From positions 128,001 to 192,000 of the forward strand of contig CAVPZX010000003.1 of the NCBI GenBank assembly GCA_963710375.1: a stretch of DNA of 64,000 nt. The letters are read 5' to 3'. Origin of the DNA: Nitrospirota bacterium (GTDB lineage Bacteria > Nitrospirota > Thermodesulfovibrionia > Thermodesulfovibrionales > Dissulfurispiraceae). The translations under genes were made by a program, and so were the position numbers. Each line of letters starts with the position of its first letter. Within the stretch, counting starts at the first letter, position 1. The notes beneath the pieces were generated by a model. The model did no database searches. It was given only the letters and a program-made list of their open reading frames with translations, and was not told the DNA's origin. Shown piece after piece: positions 7,264 through 46,571 of this stretch.

Positions 7264-7304
7264 ATTGCAGATACTAAATACTAAAGAGGGGGAATTTTCA
7301 GACA

Positions 7305-8723
7305 GTGAGCGGCGATGAAAAAAGCAAGAGTATAGTTGACAGGATTTGGGATTTATTTTCTTCCATAAAGCTTGCGGTGGTAGTTTTCACCATTATCTCG
7401 GCCACCTCTATCGTGGGCACCGTAATTGAACAACAAGCCGAACCTGAGCAGAATATAAAACTGCTGGCAAAGTTTGTAGGTGTGGATTTTGCTCCAACTG
7501 CCTTTCGCATATTGGATACGCTGGGTTTTACCGATATGTTCCGCTCCTGGTGGTTCATGGCCCTACTGTTCATATTCACGGCTAATCTGGTCATCTGTTC
7601 TTTTGAGAGACTTCCCAAGATATGGAAGCTTGTCAAGGAGCCGGTCAAGCCTGTAACAGCTGAACGGTTAAATGCCCTGTCGATAAAACGGGAGATTATT
7701 TTAAAAGAGAAAGTTGACAAAGCCGCAGAGCATGCCGGGGCTGTACTGAAGAGGAATGGATTCAGGGCCGGCGAGAGGAAAGAGGACAACGGGGTCCAGT
7801 TATACGCTGAAAAGGGCAGATACAGCAGGCTTGGAGTATACATTACACATCTGAGCATACTGCTGATATTGGGTGGAGCGGTAATAGGGATGATTTTCGG
7901 GTTCAATGGCTCGCTTAATTTACCGGAAGGGATGTCATCCGTTGTAGCCTATAAGAGCAGCGGAATGCAGATACCGCTGGGGTTTGAGGTCCGGTGCGAT
8001 AATTTCAATGTTTCATTTTACGACAATACTGATACTCCCAAATCATATAAAAGCTGGCTGACTATAATAGAGAGCGGTAAGGAAGTAAAGGGAAAGGTGA
8101 TAGATGTGAACAACCCATTACAGCATAAAGGGATTACATTTTATCAGGCCAGTTACGGGTATGCTCCGTCGAGGAATTCGATATTTAAATTCAGCGTAAC
8201 ATCGAATGCCGGGACAAGAGGAGATGTGAATGTTAAATTTGGAGAACCGTTCACGATACCCGGGACAGCAGTGACCGGGAAAGTTATTGACTTTAGTCCT
8301 GCAATCGGTATGGACGAGTCCGGGAAGCTGTATACGTATGCGGAAATGATGAATAACCCGGCAGCATTTGTGGAATTTACAGAGAACGGGAAAATGAAAT
8401 ACCGGCAGTGGATACTGGTGCGGTTACCGCAGACATGGAAGGTGGCGGATGGGACAGTTGAGTTCAAGCATTTATGGGGAGCACAGTATACCGGATTGCA
8501 GGTGAGGAAAGACCCTGGAGTATGGCTTGTCTATCTGGGGTGCATGGTTATGGCCATGGGACTGTATACCGCATTTTTCATGGGACATAGCAGGGTATGG
8601 ATATGGGTGAGGGAAGACAAGGGCGGAGCAAAGGTTACGATAGCCGGGTCAGCGAATAAAAATAAGATCTCTTTTGAACAGAAGATAGATAAAATGACAA
8701 AAGAAGTAAGCAGTAAGCAGTAG
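7305..8723 (+). CDS. resB: Cytochrome c biogenesis protein ResB/Ccs1 (System II), copy 1
   Basis: SSIKLAV...GTVIEQ, FRSWWF, YITHLS, VNNPL and TGLQVRKDPG motifs. Confidence 0.93.
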   Translation: MSGDEKSKSIVDRIWDLFSSIKLAVVVFTIISATSIVGTVIEQQAEPEQNIKLLAKFVGVDFAPTAFRILDTLGFTDMFRSWWFMALLFIFTANLVICSFERLPKIWKLVKEPVKPVTAERLNALSIKREIILKEKVDKAAEHAGAVLKRNGFRAGERKEDNGVQLYAEKGRYSRLGVYITHLSILLILGGAVIGMIFGFNGSLNLPEGMSSVVAYKSSGMQIPLGFEVRCDNFNVSFYDNTDTPKSYKSWLTIIESGKEVKGKVIDVNNPLQHKGITFYQASYGYAPSRNSIFKFSVTSNAGTRGDVNVKFGEPFTIPGTAVTGKVIDFSPAIGMDESGKLYTYAEMMNNPAAFVEFTENGKMKYRQWILVRLPQTWKVADGTVEFKHLWGAQYTGLQVRKDPGVWLVYLGCMVMAMGLYTAFFMGHSRVWIWVREDKGGAKVTIAGSANKNKISFEQKIDKMTKEVSSKQ

Positions 8724-8739
8724 GCAAAGGAGGTTATAC

Positions 8740-9825
8740 ATGGACAGTTCTCAGTTTTTCGGCATAGCGAGCATTGCGTATATACTGGCAATGGTTGCGT
8801 ATATAGCGTATCTGGCATTCAAGAATTCCGTGGTCGGGGTTATCGCGACAACAATAACAGTGGTTGGATTTATCTCGCATACAATAGCATTTATTCTGCG
8901 TTGGAAAGAGTTTTACGAAATCGGCCAAATGGGGATACTGAGAGCGATACCCCTTACGAACCTCTATGAATCGCTGATATTCTTTGTCTGGTGCGTGATA
9001 CTGGCGTATCTGATCATCGAGTGGAAATACAAGAACCGGTCGTTCGGAGCTTTTATCACCCCCATCGCGGGAATGGCGCTGGCGTTTATCGACATATCGG
9101 GGATGGATAAAAATATACACCCTCTGATACCTGCGCTTCAGAGCAACTGGCTGCTGGCGCATGTAACAATGAGTTTTCTCTCCTATGCAGCCTTTGCCAT
9201 ATCCTTTGCCACATCCATGATGTACCTGATTATTACGACTGAAGACAAAAAAAGCGCTCCTTATATTTTCTGGACGATTGCCTTGGGAGTATTTGTTTCG
9301 GTGTTTCTGGCCATGGGCATAGATTTTTTAGTATTCAAAGTTGCGATGAGTTCACCGGAATCGTTCATAAAGAGCTACCTGTTCAAGGCTACTTACAGGA
9401 ACAGTTCAGGGGCGGTATCGCTCGTCAGTTATTTAGGGACGGCTGTTTTTATCTTCGTAATCTGGAAGTACGGCTATTTATTAAGAAACGTTATAACATC
9501 GTTCTCTATCTCACAGGATCTGCTTGATGACCTGACATATAAGAGTGTAGCAGTGGGGTTTCCGATATTCACACTTGGCGGACTGATATTCGGTGCGGTA
9601 TGGGCAGACCAGGCGTGGGGCAGGTATTGGAGCTGGGACCCGAAAGAGACATGGTCATTGATAACGTGGTTTGTATATGCTTTTTATCTGCACGCGAGGT
9701 TTTTAAGAGGCTGGAGGGGCAGGAGGATAGCGGTAGTTGCGGTCGTGGGATTTGTCTGCACGGTCTTCACCTACCTGGGTGTTAACCTTCTGCTGAGCGG
9801 CCTGCATTCATATGGGGGAGGATAA
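8740..9825 (+). CDS. resC: Cytochrome c biogenesis protein ResC/CcsA (System II heme ligase), copy 1
   Basis: WWD motif WGRYWSWDPKETW, PALQSNWLLAH and C-terminal GLHSY. Confidence 0.95.
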   Translation: MDSSQFFGIASIAYILAMVAYIAYLAFKNSVVGVIATTITVVGFISHTIAFILRWKEFYEIGQMGILRAIPLTNLYESLIFFVWCVILAYLIIEWKYKNRSFGAFITPIAGMALAFIDISGMDKNIHPLIPALQSNWLLAHVTMSFLSYAAFAISFATSMMYLIITTEDKKSAPYIFWTIALGVFVSVFLAMGIDFLVFKVAMSSPESFIKSYLFKATYRNSSGAVSLVSYLGTAVFIFVIWKYGYLLRNVITSFSISQDLLDDLTYKSVAVGFPIFTLGGLIFGAVWADQAWGRYWSWDPKETWSLITWFVYAFYLHARFLRGWRGRRIAVVAVVGFVCTVFTYLGVNLLLSGLHSYGGG

Positions 9826-9830
9826 AAGGC

Positions 9831-9903
9831 AAAGTTAAGGCTAAGGTTAAGGTTAAGCAAGGTTTCTTGTTTTTTCCTTAACCTTAACCTTGACCTCAAC
9901 CTT
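9831..9903. repeat. Hexamer-periodic inverted repeat (AAGGTT)n...(AACCTT)n hairpin
   Basis: aaagttaaggctaaggttaaggttaag ... cttaaccttaaccttgacctcaacctt. Confidence 0.8.
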
Positions 9904-9930
9904 CTTTTATTATGAGATTTTCAGAGGAGG

Positions 9931-10761
9931 ATGTGTGAGATGGTTTTAAAAACTCCGTTAGTTGCATTGATGCTTGTCCTTGCGGTATTTATTGCAACTG
10001 CGAACGCTGAACCCCCGTATATGGACCCTGTTACAGGAATGGAGTTTGTATTTATTAAAGGCGGTTGTTATCAAATGGGTGACCCGACCGGCGACAGCAA
10101 TGACAGGCCGCCCCATGAGGTATGCGTTAGTGATTTTTACATGAGTAAGTACGACGTTACCAATCAGCAGTTCAGAAAATTCAGGCCCGAACACAGTAGC
10201 GGCAACTTTGAGGGTTTGTCGGAAAATGGTGACGAACAGCCGGTTGTGAATGTTACCTGGGAGGATGCGGTCGCTTTTGCCGGGTGGCTGTCTCAAAAAA
10301 GCGGGCGGACTTACAGGCTGCCGACCGAGGCGGAGTGGGAGTACGCAGCCCGTGCCGGATCACAGACCACATATTTCTGGGGCAATAACCCTGACGATGC
10401 CTGCAAATATGCTAATGTGGCTGATCTGACTGCAAAGAAGCGCTGGAAGAAATGGACCGTCTTTAATTGTGATGACAAGTTTCTGGTTACGTCTCCTGTC
10501 GGCAGTTTTCTGCCAAACAACAATGGGCTTTACGATATGCTCGGCAATGTTTGGCAATGGGTCGAGGACGTATACAATAAAGAAGCCTATATCAAGCTTC
10601 CTAAATACAACCCGGTGTACGAGGGTTCCGGCAAATATCGTGTCATGCGGGGCGGGGGCTGGAGCAACGGGCCTCTGGGTGTGAGGGTTTCCCATCGCGT
10701 TCCGCTTACACCGGATTTCGGACATCATGCTCTAGGGTTCCGGCTAGTGATGGCCAAATGA
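9931..10761 (+). CDS. Exported formylglycine-generating enzyme (FGE/SUMF1) domain protein
   Basis: Signal peptide; PVVNVTWEDA, RLPTEAEWEYAARAG, GLYDMLGNVWQW and GFRL motifs. Confidence 0.9.
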   Translation: MCEMVLKTPLVALMLVLAVFIATANAEPPYMDPVTGMEFVFIKGGCYQMGDPTGDSNDRPPHEVCVSDFYMSKYDVTNQQFRKFRPEHSSGNFEGLSENGDEQPVVNVTWEDAVAFAGWLSQKSGRTYRLPTEAEWEYAARAGSQTTYFWGNNPDDACKYANVADLTAKKRWKKWTVFNCDDKFLVTSPVGSFLPNNNGLYDMLGNVWQWVEDVYNKEAYIKLPKYNPVYEGSGKYRVMRGGGWSNGPLGVRVSHRVPLTPDFGHHALGFRLVMAK

Positions 10762-10818: not shown

Positions 10819-11763
10819 TTGAACATGCTGATTTCGTTCCGTTTCGAAACGCTTTATAAATTACTCATTATTTTTTGTCTTATTCTCTCTGCTCTTCCCG
10901 GCTGCAAAAAGAGCGAAGAAGTCACTCCGAAGATGGCATCACCGGGTCCTGAAATCGTTATCGGACTTATTCCGGAACAAAACATCTTCGCACAGATGGA
11001 TAAGTACCAGCTGCTTTCAGACTACCTTTCGGCCAGGATCGGCAGGCCAATTCACTGGCGAGTCGAGCCCCATTACGGCACTATTATTGATGACTTTCGC
11101 TCTTCTAAACTTGACGGGGCTTTTTTTGGGAGTTTCAGTTATGTGCTTGTTCACGCAAGAACTGGCGCTGAGGTCATGGTGCGCGCCGAGGACCTTAACG
11201 GTGTGTTGACGTACAGGGGTCTTATTTTTGTGAGAAGGGACAGCAGAATTAAATCGGTAAAAGACATGAAAGGGAAACGCTTTGCTTTTGTTGACAAGGC
11301 GACGACAGCAGGTTACCTGTTACCACTGGCATATTTCAAGAAAATGGGTATTGACAACTACGCCGCTTACCTGAGAGAGGTTTACTTCACCGGAACTCAT
11401 ACGGACGCGATTTACGATGTGTTGAACCGGAAGGCGGATATCGGAGCTGCAAAAAACACTGTTTTAGAGAAAGTTGAAGCCGCTGACAGCCGCATAAAGA
11501 AAGAACTGATTGTTCTTGAAAAGTCTCCCGAGGTGCCTGAAAATGGCCTTGCTGTCAGAAAAGACCTTGATCCCGCACTTAAGAAAAAACTGAAGGATGT
11601 CCTGCTCGATATGTACCAGGATCCGGATGGACAGAACGTCCTGGAGCAGTTCGGGGCGAGAAGGTTTATCGAGACCACGGATCAGGATTATAAGGCAGTT
11701 TACGAATATACCCGGCAACTCGACATCGACCTCCAAACCTTCGACTACGGGGGCAAGAAATGA
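10819..11763 (+). CDS. PhnD/SsuA-like periplasmic binding lipoprotein
   Basis: Lipobox-like LPGC and DMKGKRFAFVDKATTAGYLLP motif. Overlaps the kinase start (ATGA); no ABC permease is nearby. Confidence 0.85.
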   Translation: MNMLISFRFETLYKLLIIFCLILSALPGCKKSEEVTPKMASPGPEIVIGLIPEQNIFAQMDKYQLLSDYLSARIGRPIHWRVEPHYGTIIDDFRSSKLDGAFFGSFSYVLVHARTGAEVMVRAEDLNGVLTYRGLIFVRRDSRIKSVKDMKGKRFAFVDKATTAGYLLPLAYFKKMGIDNYAAYLREVYFTGTHTDAIYDVLNRKADIGAAKNTVLEKVEAADSRIKKELIVLEKSPEVPENGLAVRKDLDPALKKKLKDVLLDMYQDPDGQNVLEQFGARRFIETTDQDYKAVYEYTRQLDIDLQTFDYGGKK

Positions 11764-13964
11764 AGAGACAAATTGTCATTGGACTGACTGCCTTTGCCAT
11801 GCTCTTTTTCCTCGGCGGCATTTACATTGTTTTTTCGGTCAACAAGGCGACAACTATGCTCGACCGTCTGATCTTGCTTCACCAGGTCGAGATCCTGAGA
11901 GAGCACCTGATGATAGAAATCAAGAAAGTGCAGGCTGATGTCAACTTGAAAAATACCCGTTATGCCAGGACCGTTGATACATTTGTAAAAGATGTGCAGC
12001 AGATGGATCAGGTTTCCCAGGAATGTTTTTCCTGCCATCACACGGAAGCTGTCGCCATGAGGCTCCAGGACATGGAACGGCAGGTCGGATTGTATAAAAA
12101 TGCCCTGAGCAGGGTGCTGACAATGCGCGCAAACGACGTCAGGCTGGACGAGGAGGACGATAACACTTACAGAGTAGGCGAAGAATTGGTCGGTAAGGTC
12201 AACACTATGATTGCCCTGGCCACCAGCGATCTTGATAAGGAGACGCGGATCTCACTCAGAAACATCCAAAACACGAAGAATGTGCTTTATGTGCTCGCCA
12301 CACTGAGTCCATTGCTCGGTTTTTGTTTGGCATTCGTCTTTATAAAAGGATTTACCAGACCGATAAAGGCCTTGCTGGATGCGACCAGGAAGCTGAAGGC
12401 CGGAAATCTGGACCATCGGATAGAAACTCTGAAAGACGAGTTTGGAGAGTTGGCCGATTCTTTTAATGAAATGGCCGGCGCACTCACCAGTCATATGAAG
12501 AGAGTGGAAGAGAGCGAGAAACGCTACCGTATGCTCTTTGAGAGCGCCGGTGATGCTATTTTTATAATCGAGGCAGAAGGCGGGAATGCAGGGCGGATAG
12601 CAGCAGCAAACAAGGCTGCGACAGTTATGCATGGGTATACCGTAGAGGAATTGGTAGGTATGAGCATCGGTGATCTTGATAGCCCCGATTCAGCCCTGGA
12701 AGTGCATGACCGTATCGCGAAAATACTCAGGGGAGAATGTCTCAACGAAGAAATAGGTCATGTCAGGAAGGATGGCACTGTCTTCCCTGTTGAAATAAGT
12801 GCGGTCTTGCTGGAGCTTGAAGGGCATAAATATGTCCTCGCTTTTGACCGTGACATCACCCGGCGCAAAGAGGTGGAAAAGGCTTTGCGCCAGTCTGAGG
12901 AAAAGTTTTCGAAGGCATTCCGCGCCAGCCCCGACTGGATTACTATCTCCACTCTTGATGAGGGGCGATACATAGAGGTAAACGACGCTTTCATGAGGAT
13001 CAGCGGCTACAGCAGAGAAGAGGTCATAGGGCGAACTTCGGGTGAGTTGGGCATTTGGGCTTATCCCAAAGAACGGGGGGAAATGTTGCCCGCGTTGAAG
13101 AAGGATGGGGCAGTATGGAACAAGGAAGTCCATTTGCGCACTAAATCAGGCAATGTCCTGACCATGCGGAGGTCCTCGCAGGCAATCGACTACGGCGGGG
13201 TGCGGTGTATTATCTCGGTGACTCACGATATCACAGAGCGAAGGAAGACCGATATGATGTTGCAGCGGGCAGAGCAGATGAAAGCGGTCGCCGAGATTGC
13301 GGTGGGACTTGCCCACGAAATAAAAAATCCCCTTGCGGGCATTAAATCGTCTATGGAGGTGCTGCATTCAGAAGGCGCCTGTTCGGGGGAGGGCAGTGAG
13401 ATACTGTTGAAAGTAATCAGTGAGATTCGCAGGATCGAAATGCTGCTTAAGGACCTGCTCAATTTTGCCCGACCGCCTAAACCGGAGTTAGGCTTGGTCG
13501 ATATCAACCCGTTACTCGATTCCACCCTGGAGTTCTCAGTGAACAAGGTCAGAATGGCGTCCCGACCAGGGATAACCATTGTCAGGGATTACGAAGAGGG
13601 CCTGCCGGCTGTGATTGCAGACGGCATGCAGATCAAGCAAGTGTTTGTTAATCTCTTTCTTAATGCGGTTGAGGCCATGCCGGACGGCGGCACTCTTAAA
13701 ATAAAAACGAGTTATGAGAAGGCGTCTTCGTCAGTCAGAATAGAAGTAGCAGATACCGGCAAGTGCATCGACGATGTTACGATGGACAAGATTTTCCAGC
13801 CCTTTTTCACTACTAAAGCAAAAGGCACCGGCATGGGATTAGCTATCTCGAAACGGCTTATTGAAGACCATGGAGGCACGATAACGCTGGGCAACTTGCC
13901 GGACCGAGGCGCTGTCTTTACCATCAGGATACCTGTCCCGCAGTACAAAGAGGTTAAGGCATGA
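11760..13964 (+). CDS. Sensor histidine kinase with periplasmic c-heme motif, HAMP and two PAS domains
   Basis: CFSCHH between two TM helices; H-box LAHEIKNPL, NLFLNAVEA and FFTTKAKGTGMGL. Confidence 0.92.
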   Translation: MKRQIVIGLTAFAMLFFLGGIYIVFSVNKATTMLDRLILLHQVEILREHLMIEIKKVQADVNLKNTRYARTVDTFVKDVQQMDQVSQECFSCHHTEAVAMRLQDMERQVGLYKNALSRVLTMRANDVRLDEEDDNTYRVGEELVGKVNTMIALATSDLDKETRISLRNIQNTKNVLYVLATLSPLLGFCLAFVFIKGFTRPIKALLDATRKLKAGNLDHRIETLKDEFGELADSFNEMAGALTSHMKRVEESEKRYRMLFESAGDAIFIIEAEGGNAGRIAAANKAATVMHGYTVEELVGMSIGDLDSPDSALEVHDRIAKILRGECLNEEIGHVRKDGTVFPVEISAVLLELEGHKYVLAFDRDITRRKEVEKALRQSEEKFSKAFRASPDWITISTLDEGRYIEVNDAFMRISGYSREEVIGRTSGELGIWAYPKERGEMLPALKKDGAVWNKEVHLRTKSGNVLTMRRSSQAIDYGGVRCIISVTHDITERRKTDMMLQRAEQMKAVAEIAVGLAHEIKNPLAGIKSSMEVLHSEGACSGEGSEILLKVISEIRRIEMLLKDLLNFARPPKPELGLVDINPLLDSTLEFSVNKVRMASRPGITIVRDYEEGLPAVIADGMQIKQVFVNLFLNAVEAMPDGGTLKIKTSYEKASSSVRIEVADTGKCIDDVTMDKIFQPFFTTKAKGTGMGLAISKRLIEDHGGTITLGNLPDRGAVFTIRIPVPQYKEVKA

Positions 13965-15340
13965 AGAGGAAGGGAAAGCTCTTTCTTGTCGATGATGATG
14001 AACTCATTGTCATGATGCTGTCACGGGCGCTGAAGGCAGAAGGATATGAAGTCTATACAGACACGGGTTCCAGGGATGTGGTGGACATAATAAGCTCCCG
14101 GACCCCTGATATTATTATGCTCGATATCGATTTGCCGGGACTGAAAGGAATGGACGTGCTCAAGGAAGTGAAAGCGAAACTATCTGTCGAAGTCGTGATG
14201 CTCACGGCTGACGAAACCGCCGAAACCGCTGTCAAGGCGATGAAGCTGGGCGCTGCCGACTATATGACCAAACCTTTCAGTATGGATGAGGTGAAAATCG
14301 TCATCGGCAACACTATGGATAAAATCAGGCTCAGGCACGAAGTTGATTACCTGAGAAAGTTGAATCATGAACTTTTCGAAAAAGAGATAATCGGCAATTC
14401 GACCGGTATACAGGAATTGAAGGAAAAAGCAGGGAAGCTCATAGCGGCACATGTCGAGACTATTCTGATCACCGGGGAGAGCGGTACAGGCAAGGAACTC
14501 GTTGCCAGGTATATTCATCGCCAAATGCACAGCGATGAAAATTATTCGCCTTTTGTGCGCGTCAATTGCGCGGCTTTGCCTGAAACTCTCCTCGAAAGCG
14601 AACTCTTTGGCAGCGAGAAGGGGGCCTTTACGAATGCTGTAGCCGACAAGAAAGGTCTTTTCGAGACTGCTGATGGAGGATCTATACTGCTGGATGAAAT
14701 AGGAGAGATGAAAACTTCCCTCCAGAGCAAATTGCTGAGAGTCATAGAGGAAAGATCGGTACGCCGCGTCGGCGGCAAGGATGAACTCCCGATCGATGTT
14801 GTCATTATCGCCACGACCAACAGGAACCTTCAGGAAGCTGTTGACCAGGGAGAATTTCGGCTGGACCTTTTTTACAGGTTGAACGCTTTTTCGATGCATT
14901 TGCCCTCTCTGAGAGACAGAAGGGAGGACATTCCCATGCTGGCAAGATACTTTCTCGCCCGTCTTTCCGCTAAGTACAATAAGACAATGATTTCGGGTTT
15001 TTCCCAGGAAGCTGAGAGGCTCATGGTTTCTTACCGGTGGCCCGGGAATGTGCGGGAGCTCAGGAATGTGATAGAACGGATTGTCGTGCTTGAGAGCACC
15101 GATATGATTTTGCCTGTGCATCTGCCAAAGGAGATCATCCAGCAGTCTAGTAGTACGGCGGCGGCCATTTCCGAAGAATTCCTGCTTCCTGATGGAGGCA
15201 TAGAGCTCGAAGAACTGGAGAAGAAGCTTACGATTCAGGCGCTGCAGAGGACCGGCGGGAACAAAACAGCTGCAGCAAAATTGCTGGGCGTCAGTTACGA
15301 CAGTTTTCGGTATCAAATCAAGAAATTCAGCCTTGAATAG
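13961..15340 (+). CDS. Sigma54-dependent response regulator (NtrC family)
   Basis: REC domain, GESGTGKE, ESELFG, GAFTNA variant of GAFTGA, LDEIGE, WPGNVREL and Fis-type HTH. Confidence 0.95.
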   Translation: MKRKGKLFLVDDDELIVMMLSRALKAEGYEVYTDTGSRDVVDIISSRTPDIIMLDIDLPGLKGMDVLKEVKAKLSVEVVMLTADETAETAVKAMKLGAADYMTKPFSMDEVKIVIGNTMDKIRLRHEVDYLRKLNHELFEKEIIGNSTGIQELKEKAGKLIAAHVETILITGESGTGKELVARYIHRQMHSDENYSPFVRVNCAALPETLLESELFGSEKGAFTNAVADKKGLFETADGGSILLDEIGEMKTSLQSKLLRVIEERSVRRVGGKDELPIDVVIIATTNRNLQEAVDQGEFRLDLFYRLNAFSMHLPSLRDRREDIPMLARYFLARLSAKYNKTMISGFSQEAERLMVSYRWPGNVRELRNVIERIVVLESTDMILPVHLPKEIIQQSSSTAAAISEEFLLPDGGIELEELEKKLTIQALQRTGGNKTAAAKLLGVSYDSFRYQIKKFSLE

Positions 15341-15363
15341 GACTTTTGGGGAGTAATAAAACC

Positions 15364-16170
15364 ATGAATGCACTCAAGCGCTTTGTTTGTCCGGTCCTCT
15401 TCATTGTTGCTAGTTTTTTTTTCGTTAAAGATGCCTTGTCAGGTTTTCCAGTTGTGCCACCTCAGGAATACGGTCGTGTCGTCATAAAAAATTATTCGGT
15501 AGCTGCCGGGCTTGCTCCGGTTGTGTTTGATCATTGGCTCCACAGGGCACGTTTCACATGCAGGCTGTGTCACGTCGATATAGGGTTCGCCATGCAGTCA
15601 GGCGGTACCGGCATCAAGGCTGAAACTAACGGGAAAGGGTTTTATTGCGGGTCCTGTCACAATGGCTCGTTTACCTTCGAAGACAAAAAGGTGTTTGCGT
15701 CTTGTTCTACCAAAGCAAGTGACGCTGGAGACCCCCGCTGTGAGAGATGCCATTCGTATGGCAAAAAGGTCAAAAAGGAATACGATTTCTTCACTTTTAC
15801 CAGGGACCTGCCCAGGAAGGGACTCGGCAACGGCATCGATTGGGAAACGGCCGAAGAAAAAGGAATCATAAGACCTGTCGATTTTATTCCGGGAATATCT
15901 GTGAGGAGGAAGCCGCTCAAGCCGCAAGAGGACTTCACTATTAAAGCAAGGGGCAAATGGATAAAAGCCGACATTATATTTTCCCATAAGAAACACGTCA
16001 AATGGAACGGCTGTGAGGTCTGCCACCCGGATATATTCCCGATCACAAAGCAGGGACCACAGAGCTTCAGCATGTTCGATATATCAGGGGGACAATATTG
16101 CGGCCTCTGTCATGGGAATGTGGCATTCCCCATTAATGAATGCCGGCGGTGTCATACTAAACCTGTGTAG
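15364..16170 (+). CDS. Hexaheme cytochrome c with two c7-type triheme domains
   Basis: Signal peptide, 6 CXXCH, VVFDHWLH and IIFSHKKH. Confidence 0.88.
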   Translation: MNALKRFVCPVLFIVASFFFVKDALSGFPVVPPQEYGRVVIKNYSVAAGLAPVVFDHWLHRARFTCRLCHVDIGFAMQSGGTGIKAETNGKGFYCGSCHNGSFTFEDKKVFASCSTKASDAGDPRCERCHSYGKKVKKEYDFFTFTRDLPRKGLGNGIDWETAEEKGIIRPVDFIPGISVRRKPLKPQEDFTIKARGKWIKADIIFSHKKHVKWNGCEVCHPDIFPITKQGPQSFSMFDISGGQYCGLCHGNVAFPINECRRCHTKPV

Positions 16171-16184
16171 TGAGGAGGGTCTGA

Positions 16185-17102
16185 ATGAAAACATTTTTAT
16201 TTATGATTGTGCTTATCGTGGTTTTTACCGGACTGGCATTGGCCGAGACCGGCGTCAAGAAAAGAAGACCTTTGCCTTACGAATATGGGCGAGTGGTCAT
16301 TAATAACTACTCGACCAAGGCTTATCTGGCCCCTGTAGTATTTGATCACTGGCTTCACAGGTCCAATTTCACCTGCAGGCTTTGCCATGTTGACATCGCG
16401 TTTGCGATGAAGGCCGGTGCTACAGGCATCAGGGCGGCAGACAACATGAAGGGCTATTATTGCGGTTCCTGCCATAACGGGAAAATGCAGTGGCAGGACA
16501 GGAAGGTCTTTGAGGCATGTTCAAAGGAATATAGTCATCAAGATATGAGCAGGTGTGAGAGATGCCACTCTTTGGGCAAAGACGTGAAGAAGGAGTACGA
16601 CTTCAGCAAGTTTACCGAGAAGTTTCCTAAGGGACGGTTCGGCAACGGAATCGACTGGGTAAAAGCTGAAGATGAAGGGTTTATAAAACCTATCGGATTT
16701 CTGCCGGGAATATCGGTGAAAAGGCCTCCGCTTAAGGTCCAGAAAGACTTTTCCCTTGAGCCCAAGGTCCAGGGCATGCCTCAGATCATCTTTTCACACA
16801 AGAAACATATTGTCTGGAGCGGCTGTGAATTATGCCATCCGGAGATATTCGCCGGAGTTAAAAAAGGAGCGACGAAATACTCCATGCTGGAGAATTTTGA
16901 GGGTAAATACTGCGGCGCATGCCATGGGCTGGTCGCTTTCCCATTGCTTGATTGTCAGAGATGCCACACAAAACCTGTTGAAGGTACACCGGAAGGACAA
17001 CCTGAACAAAAGGAACCTGTTAAGCAAGGGGCAATCAGACAAATTCAACAGCAGCTATATGCCGGGCCTGCGTTGGCCGATGACAGCGGGGTGAAGCGAT
17101 GA
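16185..17102 (+). CDS. Hexaheme cytochrome c with two c7-type triheme domains (paralogue of the preceding gene)
   Basis: Signal peptide, 6 CXXCH and the same VVFDHWLH/IIFSHKKH motifs. Confidence 0.88.
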   Translation: MKTFLFMIVLIVVFTGLALAETGVKKRRPLPYEYGRVVINNYSTKAYLAPVVFDHWLHRSNFTCRLCHVDIAFAMKAGATGIRAADNMKGYYCGSCHNGKMQWQDRKVFEACSKEYSHQDMSRCERCHSLGKDVKKEYDFSKFTEKFPKGRFGNGIDWVKAEDEGFIKPIGFLPGISVKRPPLKVQKDFSLEPKVQGMPQIIFSHKKHIVWSGCELCHPEIFAGVKKGATKYSMLENFEGKYCGACHGLVAFPLLDCQRCHTKPVEGTPEGQPEQKEPVKQGAIRQIQQQLYAGPALADDSGVKR

Positions 17103-18010: not shown

Positions 18011-18023
18011 TCGCATATTTGCT

Positions 18024-39370: not shown

Positions 39371-40027
39371 TTAAGGCTTTTGCAGCTGAAGGCCGCTCAT
39401 TTTAAGTCCGTCAATAAGGCTTTTGAACCTCTTGTAGGATTCTCCGGATTTATTTCCGTCCAGCGCCACAATGTCTCTGACTTTTGCATTCGCCGAGAGG
39501 AGTGCGCCTTCAAAGCGTTCAGCCTCTTCCCGTTGACGTTCTGTTTTTGTTCTTTCTGTTTTTTCTGTTTCTATTTTCTCCTCATCCGCAATTTTTCCGA
39601 TAGTATCGACATCCGGTCTTTGTTTGGTTTGCTCCTTATTTTCAGGTGATTGTTCAACTTTGTCCTCTTGCGCGCCATCCGGTTTTGCCATAGCAGCAAC
39701 AGCATCGCTGATAAACCTGTCAAGATCAGCGGAAGCACTGCTTGTGTAAAACGCGCTCAGCGGAACATCCACGACATTTACGGATTTCTCTTCTATAGCA
39801 TCCAGAAATGAATTCACGGATAAAGCTGCCCTGTTATATGAATCAACAAGAGGTTTGCGTTTATCGCCGGTAAGGTCTTTTCTTGCGCTTACCTGATCAG
39901 CCAAGTAGTTTGCAAGCAGGATTTTCTCGCATGCCGCCCTCAGCCCGTCAGTCCTTTTGACTTCGTAGCACCCTGCCAAAAACAGGCATACTGCTATAAT
40001 AAATGCAATACAAACTGTTTTCTCCAT
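39371..40027 (-). CDS. Hypothetical lipoprotein
   Basis: LAGC lipobox after a hydrophobic stretch. Confidence 0.7.
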   Translation of the reverse strand: MEKTVCIAFIIAVCLFLAGCYEVKRTDGLRAACEKILLANYLADQVSARKDLTGDKRKPLVDSYNRAALSVNSFLDAIEEKSVNVVDVPLSAFYTSSASADLDRFISDAVAAMAKPDGAQEDKVEQSPENKEQTKQRPDVDTIGKIADEEKIETEKTERTKTERQREEAERFEGALLSANAKVRDIVALDGNKSGESYKRFKSLIDGLKMSGLQLQKP

Positions 40028-40055
40028 AGACGCGACTTCCTGTTCCCAGGACATG

Positions 40056-40628
40056 TCAAAGCTGGTGGAATGCGCGGATTTCTTCCTTCATTCTCTCCAC
40101 AGCAGACTGGAGCGATAGGGCGCTCGATAACGATGGAGTACCCGTGAGCATTGATGTGCTGAGTTCTGTTGACGCTGCGGACAATGCCGGCTGCTGCTCT
40201 TTAATCCGCAGAATTTTTTCCCGAAGACTTGCCCGCATCTCATCCAAACCCATGGCCAGGTCCTGAAACTCATCCCCCTTTCTGAGGACGACCTTGCTTG
40301 CAAGGTCGCCGCCGGCAATCCCTGCAAGGCTTCTTTTGATCGCAAAAAGCGGCGGGGAAAGCCGCTTCAAAAGCGAATGAATAATCTGAGCAAGAATGCC
40401 TGCAAAAACTACAAGCGTAACCACCTGCACGCCGATAGTAAGGGGGAGGAGCAGTTCGTTTATTGTAGAAATATCGCAATAGGACGAATAACACAAGACC
40501 GTCAGCTTTTTCTGGGCAACATAGATAAACAGCATGACTGTGACAGCCGCCCATATTGTCGCAAGGACGACAAACCGCATAATGAAACGGGATTGAAGAT
40601 CTTTATTGATAAAATAATTTCTTCTCAT
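40056..40628 (-). CDS. Small two-TM HAMP-domain membrane protein
   Basis: RRNYFINKDLQ N-terminus; PLFAIKRSLAGIAGGDL...LRKGDEFQDLA HAMP motif. Confidence 0.8.
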   Translation of the reverse strand: MRRNYFINKDLQSRFIMRFVVLATIWAAVTVMLFIYVAQKKLTVLCYSSYCDISTINELLLPLTIGVQVVTLVVFAGILAQIIHSLLKRLSPPLFAIKRSLAGIAGGDLASKVVLRKGDEFQDLAMGLDEMRASLREKILRIKEQQPALSAASTELSTSMLTGTPSLSSALSLQSAVERMKEEIRAFHQL

Positions 40629-40664
40629 TATTCACCTTTACCTATGCCTGTGTCCCTGCCTGTG

Positions 40665-41243
40665 TCATGTCCTGATTTCCGAGAGGCTCCTCTCGATTTT
40701 TTTTATATTGCTTTCCATTTCTTCTGCCGACTGCCTGATTGCTGCAGTATCATGGCCATTCCGGATAATTTCGGCTGCAGCCCTTGACTGCATCTCAAGA
40801 GTGTCGAGACAGGCCGTAATTTCAGAAATACGGGACCTGTACCGGCTCGCCACATCATTTAGAAAAATCTTCATGTCCTTCAGGTTGTCCTTTGAGCGAA
40901 AAGAGAAATTGCAGGTCAGATCGCCCTGAGCGATTTTGGCCGCCTCAACTCCGAGGCGATAGGCAGGGCCGGCTATGCGGTGAGAATAGAACAAATGAAA
41001 CACAGCCAGAGCCAGAGCAATAACAATAGAAATGGCCGCATAGACGCTTGCCACTTTCCATATAAGGTCTTTCCGGATCGATTGCACTGCTGCCAATGTG
41101 TTATGAAAGCCCTGACCCAGGTTTGCCGGAAACAACAAAGAGACTGCCCAACAGGCCATAGCAGCACCGAGCGAAACAATTACGAATGTAATTATATATA
41201 AGAATATTCGATAATTTTTCTGTGTAACGAGTCCCTTCTGCAT
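40665..41243 (-). CDS. Small two-TM HAMP-domain membrane protein
   Basis: SHRIAGPAYRL...IAQGDL...FRSKDNL HAMP motif; start uncertain (ORF open to 41318). Confidence 0.78.
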   Translation of the reverse strand: MQKGLVTQKNYRIFLYIITFVIVSLGAAMACWAVSLLFPANLGQGFHNTLAAVQSIRKDLIWKVASVYAAISIVIALALAVFHLFYSHRIAGPAYRLGVEAAKIAQGDLTCNFSFRSKDNLKDMKIFLNDVASRYRSRISEITACLDTLEMQSRAAAEIIRNGHDTAAIRQSAEEMESNIKKIERSLSEIRT

Positions 41244-41643
41244 ATGCGCCCTTTCAATAACAATATCATCAGTCTTCCAGCTACAAGATACTTTAACAGA
41301 TGAGTAATCATAGTGCAAGTGGCGCCACCGCTGGGTAGTGGGCCAGTTTGTTTTTGTTCTGTATCACCTGGGTTATCAGTAGTGGGCGAGTAACCTGCAC
41401 CCCAAAAAGTCTTACGACTTGTTGGGGACCCCGTCCGCCGAGCCCACATATATAGAAGTGGCGACCACAGATAATGCTCAATATAGGCCAGTGATTGAAT
41501 TGAACGGCTAATTGATACAGAGCAAAAACAAACTGGCTCACTACCCAAAGGAATGATGGTGGAGGCGGCAGATCAATACATGTTAAAATTAAAGTGATAT
41601 ACTTTCTTTAATAATCGAATGCGTTGCTGTAAAATGAAACTGA

Positions 41644-42912
41644 ATGAATCAGGCAAAGGCCATGAAAAAAAGTATAAAACTTTATGTATCCCTTATAGTA
41701 GTATGTTTTGTCTGTAGCCGGCTGAGTCCGGCTGGTGCAACCCCTTCCCCTGCCTTTCATAGGGGAGGGACTAATGAGTGTCAGGAATGCCACACCAACA
41801 AAAATGCCGACTCAAGAGATTTTGCTCAAATGCTCCGTGAAATAAAAGGGTTGAACAGACCTCGATCGGACAAGAGCAGCGATTTAAGAGGATCGGATGA
41901 GAGTTCGACCTGCCTTCGCTGCCATGAGGCTCCCAGAGGCACACGGAACCCTACCGGACATTATGTCGCAACCAATATCTCCGATTTGCGCGGCGGCCTG
42001 CCTCCTTCACAAATGACGCCCGGGGGAGACTTCGGATGGTTAAAGAAGAGTTACTTCTGGAAACCGCCTGACGAACGAGGTCCCGGTCATTGGAGCTCCG
42101 GCTTCCTGCACGGGCATAGTATTTTAGCAATGGACTACGGATATGACGGCAATAGCGACTACTATACTGCACCGGGTGGAAGCTATCCGGCAAGAAATCT
42201 TTCCTGCATTAGCTGCCACGATCCGCATGCTACAATTGCTAAAGGTCCTGGAGATAGAGGCTCTTATCGCTTGCTGGGCGGGAAGGGCTATTCACCTAGC
42301 TCAGCCGGAGGTATGGCGTTCGCTATTGACCCGCCTGTGGCTGTTGCTCCGCGCGGCTATAACAGGGCCGAGTATGCAACCGAGACCAGGGTTGCTTATG
42401 GAAAGGGAATGTCAGAATGGTGCACAAATTGCCATGCAAACAGTTGCTCAGGAAGTTACGGCCATGCCGTCTGCAATAATGCCAGGTTCGGCGTGGTAAT
42501 TGCCGCCAATTATAACGCATATCGGAAAACAGGAGACCTCAACGGAATGGAAAGCAGATCATTCACCTCGCTTGTACCGTTCGAGGAGGGTACGGATAAC
42601 ATTTCGTTTCTCCATCAGCACGCGAACACAGATGGAAGATACACCAGCGGCCCTGGCCCGAGTGCCAATGTAATGTGTCTGACCTGCCATAGGGCGCATG
42701 CATCTGCCTGGGACAACATGACACGATGGAACATGACCACGCCGTTTATCGTTTATAAAGGTAATTACCCGGGGATCGATAACGGTTCGCCTGTGAGATT
42801 GGCGCAGGGACGTACTTCCGCCGAGACAAAAAAAGCATATTATGACAGGCCCGCTACCTTTTTTGCCTCGTATCAAAGGAGCCTGTGTGATAAGTGCCAC
42901 CCAAAGGACTGA
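41644..42912 (+). CDS. Divergent OmcS-family hexaheme cytochrome, copy 3 (lacks the His16 equivalent)
   Basis: FHRGGTNECQECHTNKN, QMTPGGDFGWLKK, CISCHDPH, GMSEWCTNCH, CLTCHRAHAS and LCDKCHPKD. Confidence 0.85.
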   Translation: MNQAKAMKKSIKLYVSLIVVCFVCSRLSPAGATPSPAFHRGGTNECQECHTNKNADSRDFAQMLREIKGLNRPRSDKSSDLRGSDESSTCLRCHEAPRGTRNPTGHYVATNISDLRGGLPPSQMTPGGDFGWLKKSYFWKPPDERGPGHWSSGFLHGHSILAMDYGYDGNSDYYTAPGGSYPARNLSCISCHDPHATIAKGPGDRGSYRLLGGKGYSPSSAGGMAFAIDPPVAVAPRGYNRAEYATETRVAYGKGMSEWCTNCHANSCSGSYGHAVCNNARFGVVIAANYNAYRKTGDLNGMESRSFTSLVPFEEGTDNISFLHQHANTDGRYTSGPGPSANVMCLTCHRAHASAWDNMTRWNMTTPFIVYKGNYPGIDNGSPVRLAQGRTSAETKKAYYDRPATFFASYQRSLCDKCHPKD

Positions 42913-42962
42913 AACCGGGCAGCAAAGAAATTATCACTATAAAGAGGGGGAATTTTCAGACA

Positions 42963-44381
42963 GTGAGCGGCGATGAAAAAAGCAAGAGTATAGTCGACAG
43001 GATTTGGGATTTATTTTCTTCCATAAAGCTTGCGGTGGTAGTTTTCACCATTATCTCGGCCACCTCTATCGTGGGCACCGTAATTGAACAACAAGCCGAA
43101 CCTGAGCAGAATATAAAACTGCTGGCAAAGTTTGTAGGTGTGGATTTTGCTCCAACTGCCTTTCGCATATTGGATACGCTGGGTTTTACCGATATGTTCC
43201 GCTCCTGGTGGTTCATGGCCCTACTGTTCATATTCACGGCTAATCTGGTCATCTGTTCTTTTGAGAGACTTCCCAAGATATGGAAGCTTGTCAAGGAGCC
43301 GGTCAAGCCTGTAACAGCTGAACGGTTAAATGCCCTGTCGATAAAACGGGAGATTATTTTAAAAGAGAAAGTTGACAAAGCCGCAGAGCATGCCGGGGCT
43401 GTACTGAAGAGGAATGGATTCAGGGCCGGCGAGAGGAAAGAGGACAACGGGGTCCAGTTATACGCTGAAAAGGGCAGATACAGCAGGCTTGGAGTATACA
43501 TTACACATCTGAGCATACTGCTGATATTGGGTGGAGCGGTAATAGGGATGATTTTCGGGTTCAATGGCTCGCTTAATTTACCGGAAGGGATGTCATCCGT
43601 TGTAGCCTATAAGAGCAGCGGAATGCAGATACCGCTGGGGTTTGAGGTCCGGTGCGATAATTTCAATGTTTCATTTTACGACAATACTGATACTCCCAAA
43701 TCATATAAAAGCTGGCTGACTATAATAGAGAGCGGTAAGGAAGTAAAGGGAAAGGTGATAGATGTGAACAACCCATTACAGCATAAAGGGATTACATTTT
43801 ATCAGGCCAGTTACGGGTATGCTCCGTCGAGGAATTCGATATTTAAATTCAGCGTAACATCGAATGCCGGGACAAGAGGAGATGTGAATGTTAAATTTGG
43901 AGAACCGTTCACGATACCCGGGACAGCAGTGACCGGGAAAGTTATTGACTTTAGTCCTGCAATCGGTATGGACGAGTCCGGGAAGCTGTATACGTATGCG
44001 GAAATGATGAATAACCCGGCAGCATTTGTGGAATTTACAGAGAACGGGAAAATGAAATACCGGCAGTGGATACTGGTGCGGTTACCGCAGACATGGAAGG
44101 TGGCGGATGGGACAGTTGAGTTCAAGCATTTATGGGGAGCACAGTATACCGGATTGCAGGTGAGGAAAGACCCTGGAGTATGGCTTGTCTATCTGGGGTG
44201 CATGGTTATGGCCATGGGACTGTATACCGCATTTTTCATGGGACATAGCAGGGTATGGATATGGGTGAGGGAAGACAAGGGCGGAGCAAAGGTTACGATA
44301 GCCGGGTCAGCGAATAAAAATAAGATCTCTTTTGAACAGAAGATAGATAAAATGACAAAAGAAGTAAGCAGTAAGCAGTAG
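42963..44381 (+). CDS. resB: Cytochrome c biogenesis protein ResB/Ccs1, copy 2
   Basis: Protein identical to 7305-8723. Confidence 0.93.
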   Translation: MSGDEKSKSIVDRIWDLFSSIKLAVVVFTIISATSIVGTVIEQQAEPEQNIKLLAKFVGVDFAPTAFRILDTLGFTDMFRSWWFMALLFIFTANLVICSFERLPKIWKLVKEPVKPVTAERLNALSIKREIILKEKVDKAAEHAGAVLKRNGFRAGERKEDNGVQLYAEKGRYSRLGVYITHLSILLILGGAVIGMIFGFNGSLNLPEGMSSVVAYKSSGMQIPLGFEVRCDNFNVSFYDNTDTPKSYKSWLTIIESGKEVKGKVIDVNNPLQHKGITFYQASYGYAPSRNSIFKFSVTSNAGTRGDVNVKFGEPFTIPGTAVTGKVIDFSPAIGMDESGKLYTYAEMMNNPAAFVEFTENGKMKYRQWILVRLPQTWKVADGTVEFKHLWGAQYTGLQVRKDPGVWLVYLGCMVMAMGLYTAFFMGHSRVWIWVREDKGGAKVTIAGSANKNKISFEQKIDKMTKEVSSKQ

Positions 44382-44397
44382 GCAAAGGAGGTTATAC

Positions 44398-45483
44398 ATG
44401 GACAGTTCTCAGTTTTTCGGCATAGCGAGCATTGCGTATATACTGGCAATGGTTGCGTATATAGCGTATCTGGCATTCAAGAATTCCGTGGTCGGGGTTA
44501 TCGCGACAACAATAACAGTGGTTGGATTTATCTCGCATACAATAGCATTTATTCTGCGTTGGAAAGAGTTTTACGAAATCGGCCAAATGGGGATACTGAG
44601 AGCGATACCCCTTACGAACCTCTATGAATCGCTGATATTCTTTGTCTGGTGCGTGATACTGGCGTATCTGATCATCGAGTGGAAATACAAGAACCGGTCG
44701 TTCGGAGCTTTTATCACCCCCATCGCGGGAATGGCGCTGGCGTTTATCGACATATCGGGGATGGATAAAAATATACACCCTCTGATACCTGCGCTTCAGA
44801 GCAACTGGCTGCTGGCGCATGTAACAATGAGTTTTCTCTCCTATGCAGCCTTTGCCATATCCTTTGCCACATCCATGATGTACCTGATTATTACGACTGA
44901 AGACAAAAAAAGCGCTCCTTATATTTTCTGGACGATTGCCTTGGGAGTATTTGTTTCGGTGTTTCTGGCCATGGGCATAGATTTTTTAGTATTCAAAGTT
45001 GCGATGAGTTCACCGGAATCGTTCATAAAGAGCTACCTGTTCAAGGCTACTTACAGGAACAGTTCAGGGGCGGTATCGCTCGTCAGTTATTTAGGGACGG
45101 CTGTTTTTATCTTCGTAATCTGGAAGTACGGCTATTTATTAAGAAACGTTATAACATCGTTCTCTATCTCACAGGATCTGCTTGATGACCTGACATATAA
45201 GAGTGTAGCAGTGGGGTTTCCGATATTCACACTTGGCGGACTGATATTCGGTGCGGTATGGGCAGACCAGGCGTGGGGCAGGTATTGGAGCTGGGACCCG
45301 AAAGAGACATGGTCATTGATAACGTGGTTTGTATATGCTTTTTATCTGCACGCGAGGTTTTTAAGAGGCTGGAGGGGCAGGAGGATAGCGGTAGTTGCGG
45401 TCGTGGGATTTGTCTGCACGGTCTTCACCTACCTGGGTGTTAACCTTCTGCTGAGCGGCCTGCATTCATATGGGGGAGGGTAA
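44398..45483 (+). CDS. resC: Cytochrome c biogenesis protein ResC/CcsA, copy 2
   Basis: Protein identical to 8740-9825. Confidence 0.95.
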   Translation: MDSSQFFGIASIAYILAMVAYIAYLAFKNSVVGVIATTITVVGFISHTIAFILRWKEFYEIGQMGILRAIPLTNLYESLIFFVWCVILAYLIIEWKYKNRSFGAFITPIAGMALAFIDISGMDKNIHPLIPALQSNWLLAHVTMSFLSYAAFAISFATSMMYLIITTEDKKSAPYIFWTIALGVFVSVFLAMGIDFLVFKVAMSSPESFIKSYLFKATYRNSSGAVSLVSYLGTAVFIFVIWKYGYLLRNVITSFSISQDLLDDLTYKSVAVGFPIFTLGGLIFGAVWADQAWGRYWSWDPKETWSLITWFVYAFYLHARFLRGWRGRRIAVVAVVGFVCTVFTYLGVNLLLSGLHSYGGG

Positions 45484-45569
45484 AAGACAAGGTTAAGGCT
45501 AAGGTTGAGGTTAAGCAAGGTTTCTTTTTTTCCCCTTAACCTTAACCTTGACCTCAACCTTGTTTTATT

Positions 45570-46571
45570 ATGAATATTCTCGGTATCGATACATCTTGCG
45601 ACGATACATCTGCCGCGGTAGTTTCGCACGGTGAGCAAATACTTTCTTCTATTGTTTCTTCTCAGACGGATATCCACAATAAGTATGGGGGCATTGTTCC
45701 CGAATTGGCGTCGCGCCGTCATGTCGAAATGATATGGCCTGTTGTCTATGAAGCCCTGAGTGCGGCAAATATTTCCATTGACGCAGTCAATGCCATTGCC
45801 GTGTGCTGCGGTCCAGGACTGATCGGATCGCTGCTGGTAGGATGCGGCTTTGCAAAAGCTGTGGGGTACGCACGAAACATTCCTCTTGTTGGAGTGAATC
45901 ATCTGGAGGGACATATTTTCTCGGTGTTCCTCGAAAAGGAGAAGCCTGAATTCCCTTTTTTGTCTCTGATCGCCTCTGGAGGACATACGACCCTTTTCAT
46001 TATCAACGGGTTCAGGCAATACAAGGAATTGGGCAGGACAAGAGATGATGCAGCAGGCGAGGCATATGATAAGGTTTCAAAGCTGCTGGGGCTTGGATAT
46101 CCCGGCGGTCCTCTTATAGACAGACTGGCCGGGGAGGGGAACGCCGGAGCATTTGAATTTCCCCGTGCCTGGCTGCCGGAATCCTTTGACTTCAGTTTCA
46201 GCGGCGTCAAGACAGCGGTCAAATTAGTTGTCGCTAAGGGCGCAGGATCGCTCAAAAATCAGGTCTTCCTGGCTGACATTGCCGCTTCCTTTCAGGCATC
46301 GGTGATCGATGTGCTCGTGAGAAAAGTTGAATTGGCTATAATAAAAACTGGAATACGCACTGTTGTGCTCTCGGGGGGTGTTGCCTCAAACAGTGGCCTG
46401 AGGAAGAAGATCAACGAGATGGCACATGAAAGAGAGGCAAAGGTTTTTTTGCCTTCGCCAGAACTCTGTACCGACAATGCCGCCATGATAGCGTCTGCCG
46501 GATACTATCATTACATTGCCGGAAATACAGCATCGCTCGACTTGAATCCCAAGGCTTACCTGCCGTTATAA
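45570..46571 (+). CDS. tsaD: tRNA N6-adenosine threonylcarbamoyltransferase
   Basis: LGIDTSCDDT, GGIVPELASRRH, NHLEGH, DDAAGEAYDK and CTDNAAMIA motifs. Confidence 0.97.
   Translation: MNILGIDTSCDDTSAAVVSHGEQILSSIVSSQTDIHNKYGGIVPELASRRHVEMIWPVVYEALSAANISIDAVNAIAVCCGPGLIGSLLVGCGFAKAVGYARNIPLVGVNHLEGHIFSVFLEKEKPEFPFLSLIASGGHTTLFIINGFRQYKELGRTRDDAAGEAYDKVSKLLGLGYPGGPLIDRLAGEGNAGAFEFPRAWLPESFDFSFSGVKTAVKLVVAKGAGSLKNQVFLADIAASFQASVIDVLVRKVELAIIKTGIRTVVLSGGVASNSGLRKKINEMAHEREAKVFLPSPELCTDNAAMIASAGYYHYIAGNTASLDLNPKAYLPL

Follow-up and report, generated by a model that had tools for sequence, protein, structure and literature searches.

Direct repeats of resBC bracket an OmcS-type cytochrome island in a Nitrospirota genome and are likely a scar of recombination

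The locus described here lies in a 64,000-nucleotide stretch of a Nitrospirota genome (GenBank assembly GCA_963710375.1, contig CAVPZX010000003.1, positions 128,001 to 192,000), which we call the window; it is C3:128001-192000 of a 3.19-Mb, nine-contig genome labelled G000. Within it, the heme-maturation genes resB and resC occur twice, and a cluster of approximately 33 kb encoding multiheme cytochromes is located between the two copies. The initial annotation of this DNA placed the copies in direct orientation 35,658 bp apart, and this was confirmed: positions 7282-9915 and 42940-45573 form a direct repeat of 2,634 bp with an offset of 35,658, nine mismatches and 99.66% identity. It had also noted that the repeat ends at the ATGA of the tsaD start. 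This held as well, the ATGA of copy 2 (45570-45573) being the start of tsaD and that of copy 1 (9912-9915) having no gene after it. The features of the repeat and its flanks are as follows.

5383..7263, plus strand: HK1, a sensor histidine kinase gene (PF02518), core gene of the left flank; immediately 5′ of resB in 12/12 relatives
7282..9915, plus strand: direct repeat copy 1, with ribosome-binding site, resB, resC, spacer hairpin and ATGA; a separate contig at about twice the flank depth
7305..8723, plus strand: resB copy 1 (PF05140, E 2.6e-100)
8740..9825, plus strand: resC/ccsB copy 1 (PF01578; TIGR03144 above cut-off)
9826..9915, plus strand: diverged tail 1, with a weakened hairpin and an ATGA without a gene; eight differences from tail 2 in 9822-9904
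42940..45573, plus strand: direct repeat copy 2, with resB (42963-44381), resC (44398-45483), an intact hairpin and the tsaD start; its junction with omcS3, the last island gene, is present in sequencing runs X1 and X4
45570..46571, plus strand: tsaD, core gene of the right flank (TIGR03723 above cut-off); next to resC in 11/12 relatives

The products ResB (472 aa, PF05140) and ResC/CcsB (361 aa, PF01578, TIGR03144) are identical between the copies, and in both copies the two genes are adjacent and intact, with resC above the TIGR03144 cut-off, as is characteristic of System II cytochrome c maturation. The mismatches are distributed unevenly. In copy-1 coordinates they fall at 7337, 9822, 9829, 9833, 9849, 9869, 9874, 9875 and 9904, so that the final 94 bp of the repeat hold eight of the nine and the 2,540-bp core (7282-9821) holds one. 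With 1/2,540 differences in the core against 8/94 in the tail (Fisher p 1.7e-11), core and tail cannot share one divergence time. The core mismatch at 7337 (T in copy 1, within resB) is C in all four runs compared and lies in a GTCGAC-type motif, like three other single-site substitutions at which all four runs differ from the assembly (6067, 6517 and 11207). It is probably a base-calling error, and we dropped it as a genuine difference between the copies; the core is then probably identical, and its divergence has an upper 95% bound of 0.12%. At all four of these positions the run readings restore GTCGAC, a word that is rare in the assembly (149 occurrences vs ~820-860 for similar words), which suggests methylation of GTCGAC and, with it, systematic errors in long reads.

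The 3′ end of the repeat is an ordinary resC-tsaD spacer, with a hairpin from a repeat family dispersed across the genus. Predicted folding energies are -33.1 kcal/mol for tail 1, -40.5 kcal/mol for tail 2 and -39.9 kcal/mol for the spacer of the relative G005; tail 2 retains the stem present in G005 and G001, and in tail 1 this stem is partly lost. The spacer hairpin of most relatives belongs to a different repeat family. Dispersed palindromic repeat families with tens of genome copies occur in the window at 9826-9911, 45484-45569, 41332-41548, 51944-52149 and 61727-61939.

Eleven public DNA runs from two soil studies contain the stretch, five of them at a fraction of at least 0.90, and X1 is possibly the source of the assembly. 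Eight of the eleven were compared as short-read contigs (X6, X10 and X11 fell outside the comparison). The core 7282-9821 forms its own 2,540-bp contig in X1 and X3, at depths of 26.8 and 15 against flanks of 13-17 and 6-9, respectively, and all four flank joints (the kinase-side and omcS3-side entries, and the exits towards tsaD and towards the first island gene, which encodes an FGE-sulfatase domain) are present in run contigs of the two studies. Depths were length-weighted over the pieces listed, omitting X2 record 12 and X5 record 28, which extend beyond the repeat; a tsaD-side piece was included for X1 only. On this basis the repeat/flank depth was 1.59-1.84 in the four runs where the repeat was separable, and the island/flank depth was 1.05, 1.08, 0.93, 1.32 and 1.03 in five runs, the value of 1.32 coming from X4 and two short flank contigs. 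These ratios indicate two copies of the repeat and an island at about chromosome depth. The pairing of the flanks comes from the assembly, as short-read contigs cannot phase a 2.5-kb repeat; it is supported by the resolution of longer repeats (2,965 bp and 3,158 bp) within assembled contigs and by the same linear order in the relative G003. A G>A difference at 8159, present in X2 alone, is of no use for the study of conversion, since contigs drop variants. The sole piece from X9 is 280 bp in length and bears the eight differences of tail 1, and as a test for the empty site X7, X8 and X9 yielded no informative joint (mixed relatives, short contigs).

Between the copies lie 27 principal open reading frames (ORFs), the largest gap between them being 367 bp. 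The count of 73 CXXCH motifs made in the initial annotation was reproduced, with 72 in seven multiheme proteins and one in a kinase. Its statement that the repeats enclose the whole cytochrome system stands for the OmcS homologs, all three of which are inside, and not for the genome at large, where the island accounts for 72 of 186 CXXCH motifs (multi-motif reading frames, genome-wide). The cargo is listed below.

9931..10761, plus strand: FGE-sulfatase-domain gene (PF03781), the first island gene; next to tsaD in the relative G007, missing from the G003 island
10819..15340, plus strand: periplasmic binding protein (PF12974), heme-motif sensor kinase (PAS/HAMP/HisKA) and sigma-54 response regulator (PF00158)
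15346..17419, plus strand: two six-heme c7-type cytochromes (PF14522; CXXCH counts) and a 106-aa protein
17494..19000, minus strand: response regulator (PF00072) and a partly duplicated fragment of the same (internal repeats D5, D8-D12)
19211..22954, plus strand: TPR membrane protein, TonB-C fragment and AraC fragment (Pfam)
23184..24572, plus strand: OmcS homolog 1, with six CXXCH and His at mature position 16 (6EF8 E 1.1e-71, whole chain)
24848..25807, plus strand: NHL beta-propeller protein (PF01436, PF17170)
25956..27425, plus strand: OmcS homolog 2, with six CXXCH and His at mature position 16 (6EF8 E 5.1e-73)
27533..33145, plus strand: YNCE-type propeller, 770-aa protein, PelC-like lipoprotein and 395-aa protein; order kept in G003, G063, G083, L071, L074 and L075
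33279..39308, plus strand: PPIase-domain chaperone, 26-heme and 16-heme cytochromes, and NHL propeller (PF13145, PF09699, PF01436; CXXCH counts)
39371..41318, minus strand: three small genes without family match, kept in G003
41644..42912, plus strand: OmcS homolog 3 (omcS3), the last island gene, with six CXXCH and Lys replacing His16 (6EF8 E 2.8e-90)

All three OmcS homologs match 6EF8 across the full chain (E 1e-71 to 3e-90), and the gene order of the island recurs in other Nitrospirota and in Thermodesulfobacteriota loci. Judged by its sequence, the island is a predicted nanowire cluster of the OmcS/osc type, in which the 770-aa protein, without a family match, is a candidate beta-barrel. 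OmcS-like genes were found in 24/317 genomes of the order and in one of the nine other genomes of the genus. We take the His at mature position 16 of OmcS to be an inter-subunit heme ligand. This residue is present in homologs 1 and 2 and in 6EF8, and is missing in omcS3 and its orthologs in G003, L068, L077, L079 and L080, loci in which omcS3 is accompanied by the same small minus-strand genes; the omcS3 product may be a cap or base subunit, and by itself would not be expected to elongate a filament. Elsewhere in the genome, a 72%-identical paralog of the FGE gene adjoins a 10-CXXCH cytochrome gene (G000:C4:153307-155143).

The initial annotation saw no integrase or transposase, and we found no recombinase among the 27 principal island ORFs (all of them among 34 proteins compared with Pfam; DDE transposase families were not searched individually). 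The genome has five tyrosine-recombinase and two resolvase matches, none of them on this contig. As neither integrase, transfer nor phage genes occur among the 27 ORFs, and no replication gene was found there, the locus does not qualify as an integrative element, an integrative and conjugative element or a prophage. The genome does carry recA and a ComEC-family gene.

We compared the site with 12 relatives. The kinase lies 5′ of resB in all of them, and resC is followed directly by tsaD in 11/12, as well as in the four further genomes that were readable here (G009, G055, G056 and G063). The slot behind resBC holds the same OmcS island in G003 and another multiheme island in G007, and is empty in the remaining 10/12. 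A single crossover between the repeats of G000 would excise a circle of 35,658 bp that includes a complete resBC, with kinase-resB-resC-tsaD remaining in place; the initial annotation was right on this geometry, which reproduces the arrangement of 11/12 relatives. The synteny check in island-free relatives that it suggested gave the empty site, and the cluster without flanking repeats, which it had named as grounds for refutation, occurs in G003. There, the island separates resC from tsaD, resBC is single, and the 0.2-kb spacer from omcS3 to tsaD has no resBC remnant (L067 repeats this layout and is not counted separately). Between G000 and G003, identity is 87.1% for the island and 86.6% for core genes. 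We rejected the idea that the left edge of the G003 island retains the tsaD ATGA, the same bases aligning with the spacer before the binding-protein gene. G003 has a lone additional OmcS gene approximately 115 kb from its island (G003:C2:507217-508608, L058); this gene and a fragment in G012 gave no information on the island boundary.

In G007, an unrelated 29.6-kb island with 71 CXXCH motifs, including cytochromes of 853 aa and 1,166 aa, is positioned just 3′ of tsaD, between tsaD and nupC (G007:C3:207400-237020; L064, L063, L041). Its edge consists of the same module of FGE gene, binding protein, kinase, regulator and c7 cytochrome as in G000, at 84% identity against 77% for core genes (82-88% DNA identity over 10819..15340), which indicates that the module moved sideways. 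Since the FGE gene directly follows tsaD in G007, the lone ATGA of copy 1 is a plausible scar of a deleted tsaD. In G063, which belongs to another genus, a homologous cluster lies approximately 275 kb from the only resB and has no bracketing repeat; it contains a gene block resembling glycosyltransferases and ABC exporters (labels by sequence reading) that is missing in G000 and G003 (G063:C5:507000-521000; L110, L111). At L077, where omcS3 is 93% identical, a different gene lies 3′ of omcS3, so the omcS3-resB junction is missing from both G003 and L077 and was seen in G000 only. One resBC serves islands with 60 CXXCH motifs in G003 and 71 in G007.

A full resC match was obtained in 313 of the 351 genomes of the class, and a second one in 12 of them (a maximum of five candidates was scored per genome); identical pairs would be under-counted in fragmented assemblies. 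Five of the 11 other double-copy genomes were examined, and in all five the second resBC is a cassette of two genes, 67-81% identical and on a separate contig. resBC is a two-gene cassette that travels. One such pair, 81% identical to the native genes, is found among feoB-like and metal-efflux-like genes (G055:C55:5151-7689, L103; labels by sequence reading). The idea that cytochrome islands generally come with a second resBC found no support, as four of the pairs in these five genomes had no multiheme ORF in the flanks read.

The resBC allele itself is unusual. For resB and resC, synonymous divergence (dS) between G000 and four close relatives amounts to 0.51-0.81. The same relatives differ from one another by 0.22-0.51, and eight flanking genes give 0.27-0.64, with most values at 0.3-0.5. 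The four-fold-site distance for resBC is 0.435-0.438, vs 0.254-0.278. Private synonymous changes affect 98/445 codons in resBC and 87/915 across six neighbours (p 1e-9); for the four relatives the share is 3-11%. The excess begins at codon 1 of resB and stops with resC, that is, at the ends of the repeat. A crossover within resB that kept the native 5′ end, suggested by one 60-codon window, was rejected on this finer count. The two copies share a single resBC allele, whose synonymous divergence is about double that of its neighbours. In the resC tree G000 is placed outside the clade with a support of 96 (G007 as outgroup; genomes without the gene omitted), and just 5′ of copy 2 the sequence is similar to the last part of the spacer in the relatives. 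Upstream of resB, a TTGAAG/TTGAAC-N18-TAxxxT element was observed in the kinase-resB spacers of the four closest relatives (G005, G008, G002 and G003; L032/L031 region) and before neither copy in G000.

With moderate confidence, we read the locus as a replacement-type island slot behind resBC, in which recombination between two lineages left two resBC copies that were later made identical by conversion. We regard the repeat as a likely scar, left when recombination brought the cluster here, and not as a working copy-number switch, given that relatives have the same cluster without the repeat. In this model, the resC-tsaD-nupC region would be a slot where cytochrome islands are swapped via homologous recombination in bordering core genes. 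Incoming DNA from an island-bearing lineage would have consisted of resBC, the spacer, the tsaD-start scar and the island. Homologous recombination would have occurred at the kinase-resB end, and the other end would have been joined without long homology, placing omcS3 before the resident resB; the same map would result if a pre-formed circle had integrated by a single crossover. Joining of one end only by homology presumably resembles homology-facilitated illegitimate recombination. The incoming allele would then have overwritten the resident resBC, which had its own hairpin and tsaD, across 2,540 bp. Rare RecA-mediated exchanges between the two copies would delete the island or amplify it, and selection for the cytochromes would hold it at one copy. 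We accordingly read the repeat as a by-product that makes the island recombination-labile, neither a dedicated attachment site nor a dosage device; dosage appears unneeded, as a single resBC is present in the relatives whose islands hold 60-71 motifs.

Several observations weigh against this interpretation. The resB tree places G000 inside the clade on a long branch, and the flank trees make G000 and G003 weak sisters (85-89). An island as diverged from G003 as the core fits a single old acquisition equally well. The search for a donor allele found no ResB closer than 83-84% identity among 67 family genomes. Distances to the outgroups are saturated (0.54-0.59), so that a foreign allele and faster evolution are not separable, and G000 is slightly more distant from the outgroups than its relatives are. 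The similarities at the edges span only 5-25 bp, and the sequence 5′ of copy 1 also resembles the relatives' spacer. Compared with G005 by eye, tail 1 has eight and tail 2 seven differences, which is about equal, and gene conversion is a step that we infer from the pattern of differences.

A recent in-place duplication would make conversion unnecessary and would suit a core that is likely 100% identical. The island would have been arranged as in G003, a diverged allele would have replaced its single resBC, and this resBC would recently have been copied to the right edge of the island, an older remnant of the resC end and spacer serving as the 3′ anchor; G003 would represent the single-copy state, consistent with an omcS3-resB junction in G000 only. 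However, this course requires a pre-existing second tail, which G003 does not have, and requires that the replaced and the duplicated tract happen to coincide at both ends, and spacer-like bases stand before copy 2 that are missing from copy 1. We consider it unlikely. An old duplication, predating the split of G000 and G003, is weakened by L077 and by the native-type resBC of G003. The possibility that the assembler duplicated resBC, or mis-joined flanks that belong to an empty-site chromosome and a separate circle, was rejected and is extremely improbable. It draws on the reliance of flank pairing on the assembly, and is opposed by the repeat at 1.59-1.84 times the flank depth, the four distinct flanks in two studies, the longer repeats placed inside contigs and the linear order of G003; moreover, a circle without a replication gene would not sustain chromosome depth.

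The initial annotation had also proposed that the repeats are the island's means of movement, an attachment site used by RecA alone at which the island would be excised, re-integrated or amplified at a useful rate, and that the second resBC raises heme-ligase dosage. A clean empty site with the layout of the relatives, the presence of recA, an identical core that implies recent inter-copy recombination or recent origin, and the X4 depth ratio are consistent with such a switch, and identical nifH copies in Rhizobium etli often cause a large deletion by recombination (PMC10932983). We nevertheless think it quite unlikely. The depth comparison inside and outside the island gave no shift in the other four of five runs, and current loss or amplification was not seen, contigs leaving room for rare events; these depths rule out that an amplified or deleted state dominates in the five soil runs and are compatible with a minority of at most ~20-30% or a condition-dependent rise. 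Movement by the repeats is not supported, since in G003 this island occupies this site with a single resBC and omcS3 directly joined to tsaD, and since the cluster of G063 is unlinked; nor is the dosage proposal supported, given the single resBC of G003 and G007. The island ORFs include no replication or transfer gene, and the island-free relatives lack the G000 allele and so are not excision products. An extension of the switch is a nanowire amplicon, in which ongoing recombination would keep resBC identical, RecA would delete or multiply the OmcS system, each unit would add a heme ligase under the omcS3 promoter, and the population would tune electron export by copy number; we regard this as improbable. 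Alternatively, and compatibly with either origin, copy 2 may have been retained for transcription, being co-induced with the island and reading on to tsaD, with copy 1 transcribed from the kinase promoter. Copy 2 begins 50 bp 3′ of omcS3 with no terminator-like site between them, tail 2 retains its stem before tsaD, and the sigma-70-like site before resB in the four closest relatives precedes neither G000 copy. Against this, promoter and terminator scans were at or near chance (around copy 2, seven promoters found vs 8.0 expected), the relatives G004, G006 and G007 likewise have short spacers with one copy, omcS3 of G003 runs into tsaD without resBC, and no RNA run among the public runs contains the stretch. 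Retention for transcription seems a slim prospect.

The locus shares features with several known systems. In protein type and order, its cargo resembles the osc operon (omcS companion; Shen et al. 2025, described in PMC13194489) of Geobacter sulfurreducens: three OmcS paralogs occur in conserved order along with beta-propellers, lipoproteins, a large barrel candidate, a chaperone of the PPIase type and two large multiheme cytochromes of the periplasm, and a sensor kinase and TPR genes lie nearby. Unlike osc, the island lies in Nitrospirota, is patchy in the genus (1/9 relatives), is bracketed by resBC and has a homolog 3 without His16, and its filament is predicted only. The gene tables of the paper that defined osc may already list Nitrospirota clusters. 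The omcS region is highly variable among G. sulfurreducens strains (PMC3495685), and resB/ccsB beside cytochrome genes was noted in PMC11434368. An optional OmcE nanowire cluster behind resB-ccsB has been described in Desulfuromonadia (bioRxiv 10.1101/2025.10.22.684050, section 8), and there too a nanowire cluster is present or absent in a conserved region that starts with resB-ccsB; the wire family and phylum differ, and that section makes no mention of a resB-ccsB duplication.

In replacement flexible genomic islands, border genes show synonymous peaks and exchange by double crossover leaves no duplication (PMC4033161, PMC5217437). The present site likewise has different surface-related clusters at one position between conserved genes, no integrase, and a synonymous peak in a bordering shared gene, the last in G000 and not in G003. 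A near-identical island in otherwise diverged strains was not found, given 87.1 vs 86.6% for G003, and only the G007 module is closer. Here, in contrast to replacement islands, the border genes are duplicated and the slot is empty in most relatives, and the comparison is between species rather than strains. Unconventional circularizable structures have long direct repeats, possibly containing genes, around a cargo, with circles detected by PCR (PMC7843796, citing Palmieri et al. 2013). Our locus matches them in its long direct repeats, in a cargo without a recombinase and in that excision would leave one copy, and differs in its respiratory cargo and in a repeat that is a housekeeping operon; its direct repeats are known from sequence, whereas circles were detected there by PCR, and we do not class the locus with them.

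The nifH copies of Rhizobium etli undergo amplification and concerted evolution. Recombination between identical nifH copies deletes part of the symbiotic plasmid of this organism (PMC10932983), and, as here, identical copies of the system's own genes bracket a trait region and are substrates for crossover and conversion. That region is plasmid-borne and ~100 kb in size, with measured rearrangements; ours is chromosomal, 36 kb and known from one species, and no rearrangement has been observed. Our literature search, with most subscription journals and supplements outside its coverage, found no account of a cytochrome island enclosed by resBC repeats, and no paper on amplification of nanowire genes in response to solid electron acceptors.

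Two further genes of the window are split between frames. A ShlB/FhaC-family transporter gene at 3591-5304, not found at this place in the relatives read, is in two frames; all four runs have one base fewer at 4749, and the split is therefore probably an assembly error. A trpE/pabB-like gene (label by sequence reading) at 1910-3410 is also in two frames, its parts being contiguous in G005 and G008, and this is possibly another such error.

The locus shows a possible route by which a complete OmcS-type electron-export system could reach a core locus in a Nitrospirota genome with no integrase involved. It looks like an intermediate state, in which both anchor copies are retained, and it extends the pattern of nanowire clusters coming and going beside resB-ccsB to a second phylum and a second wire family. 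If amplification does not respond to solid electron acceptors, the repeat would be a single-lineage duplication of modest interest; if it does, the locus would represent copy-number control of extracellular electron transfer.

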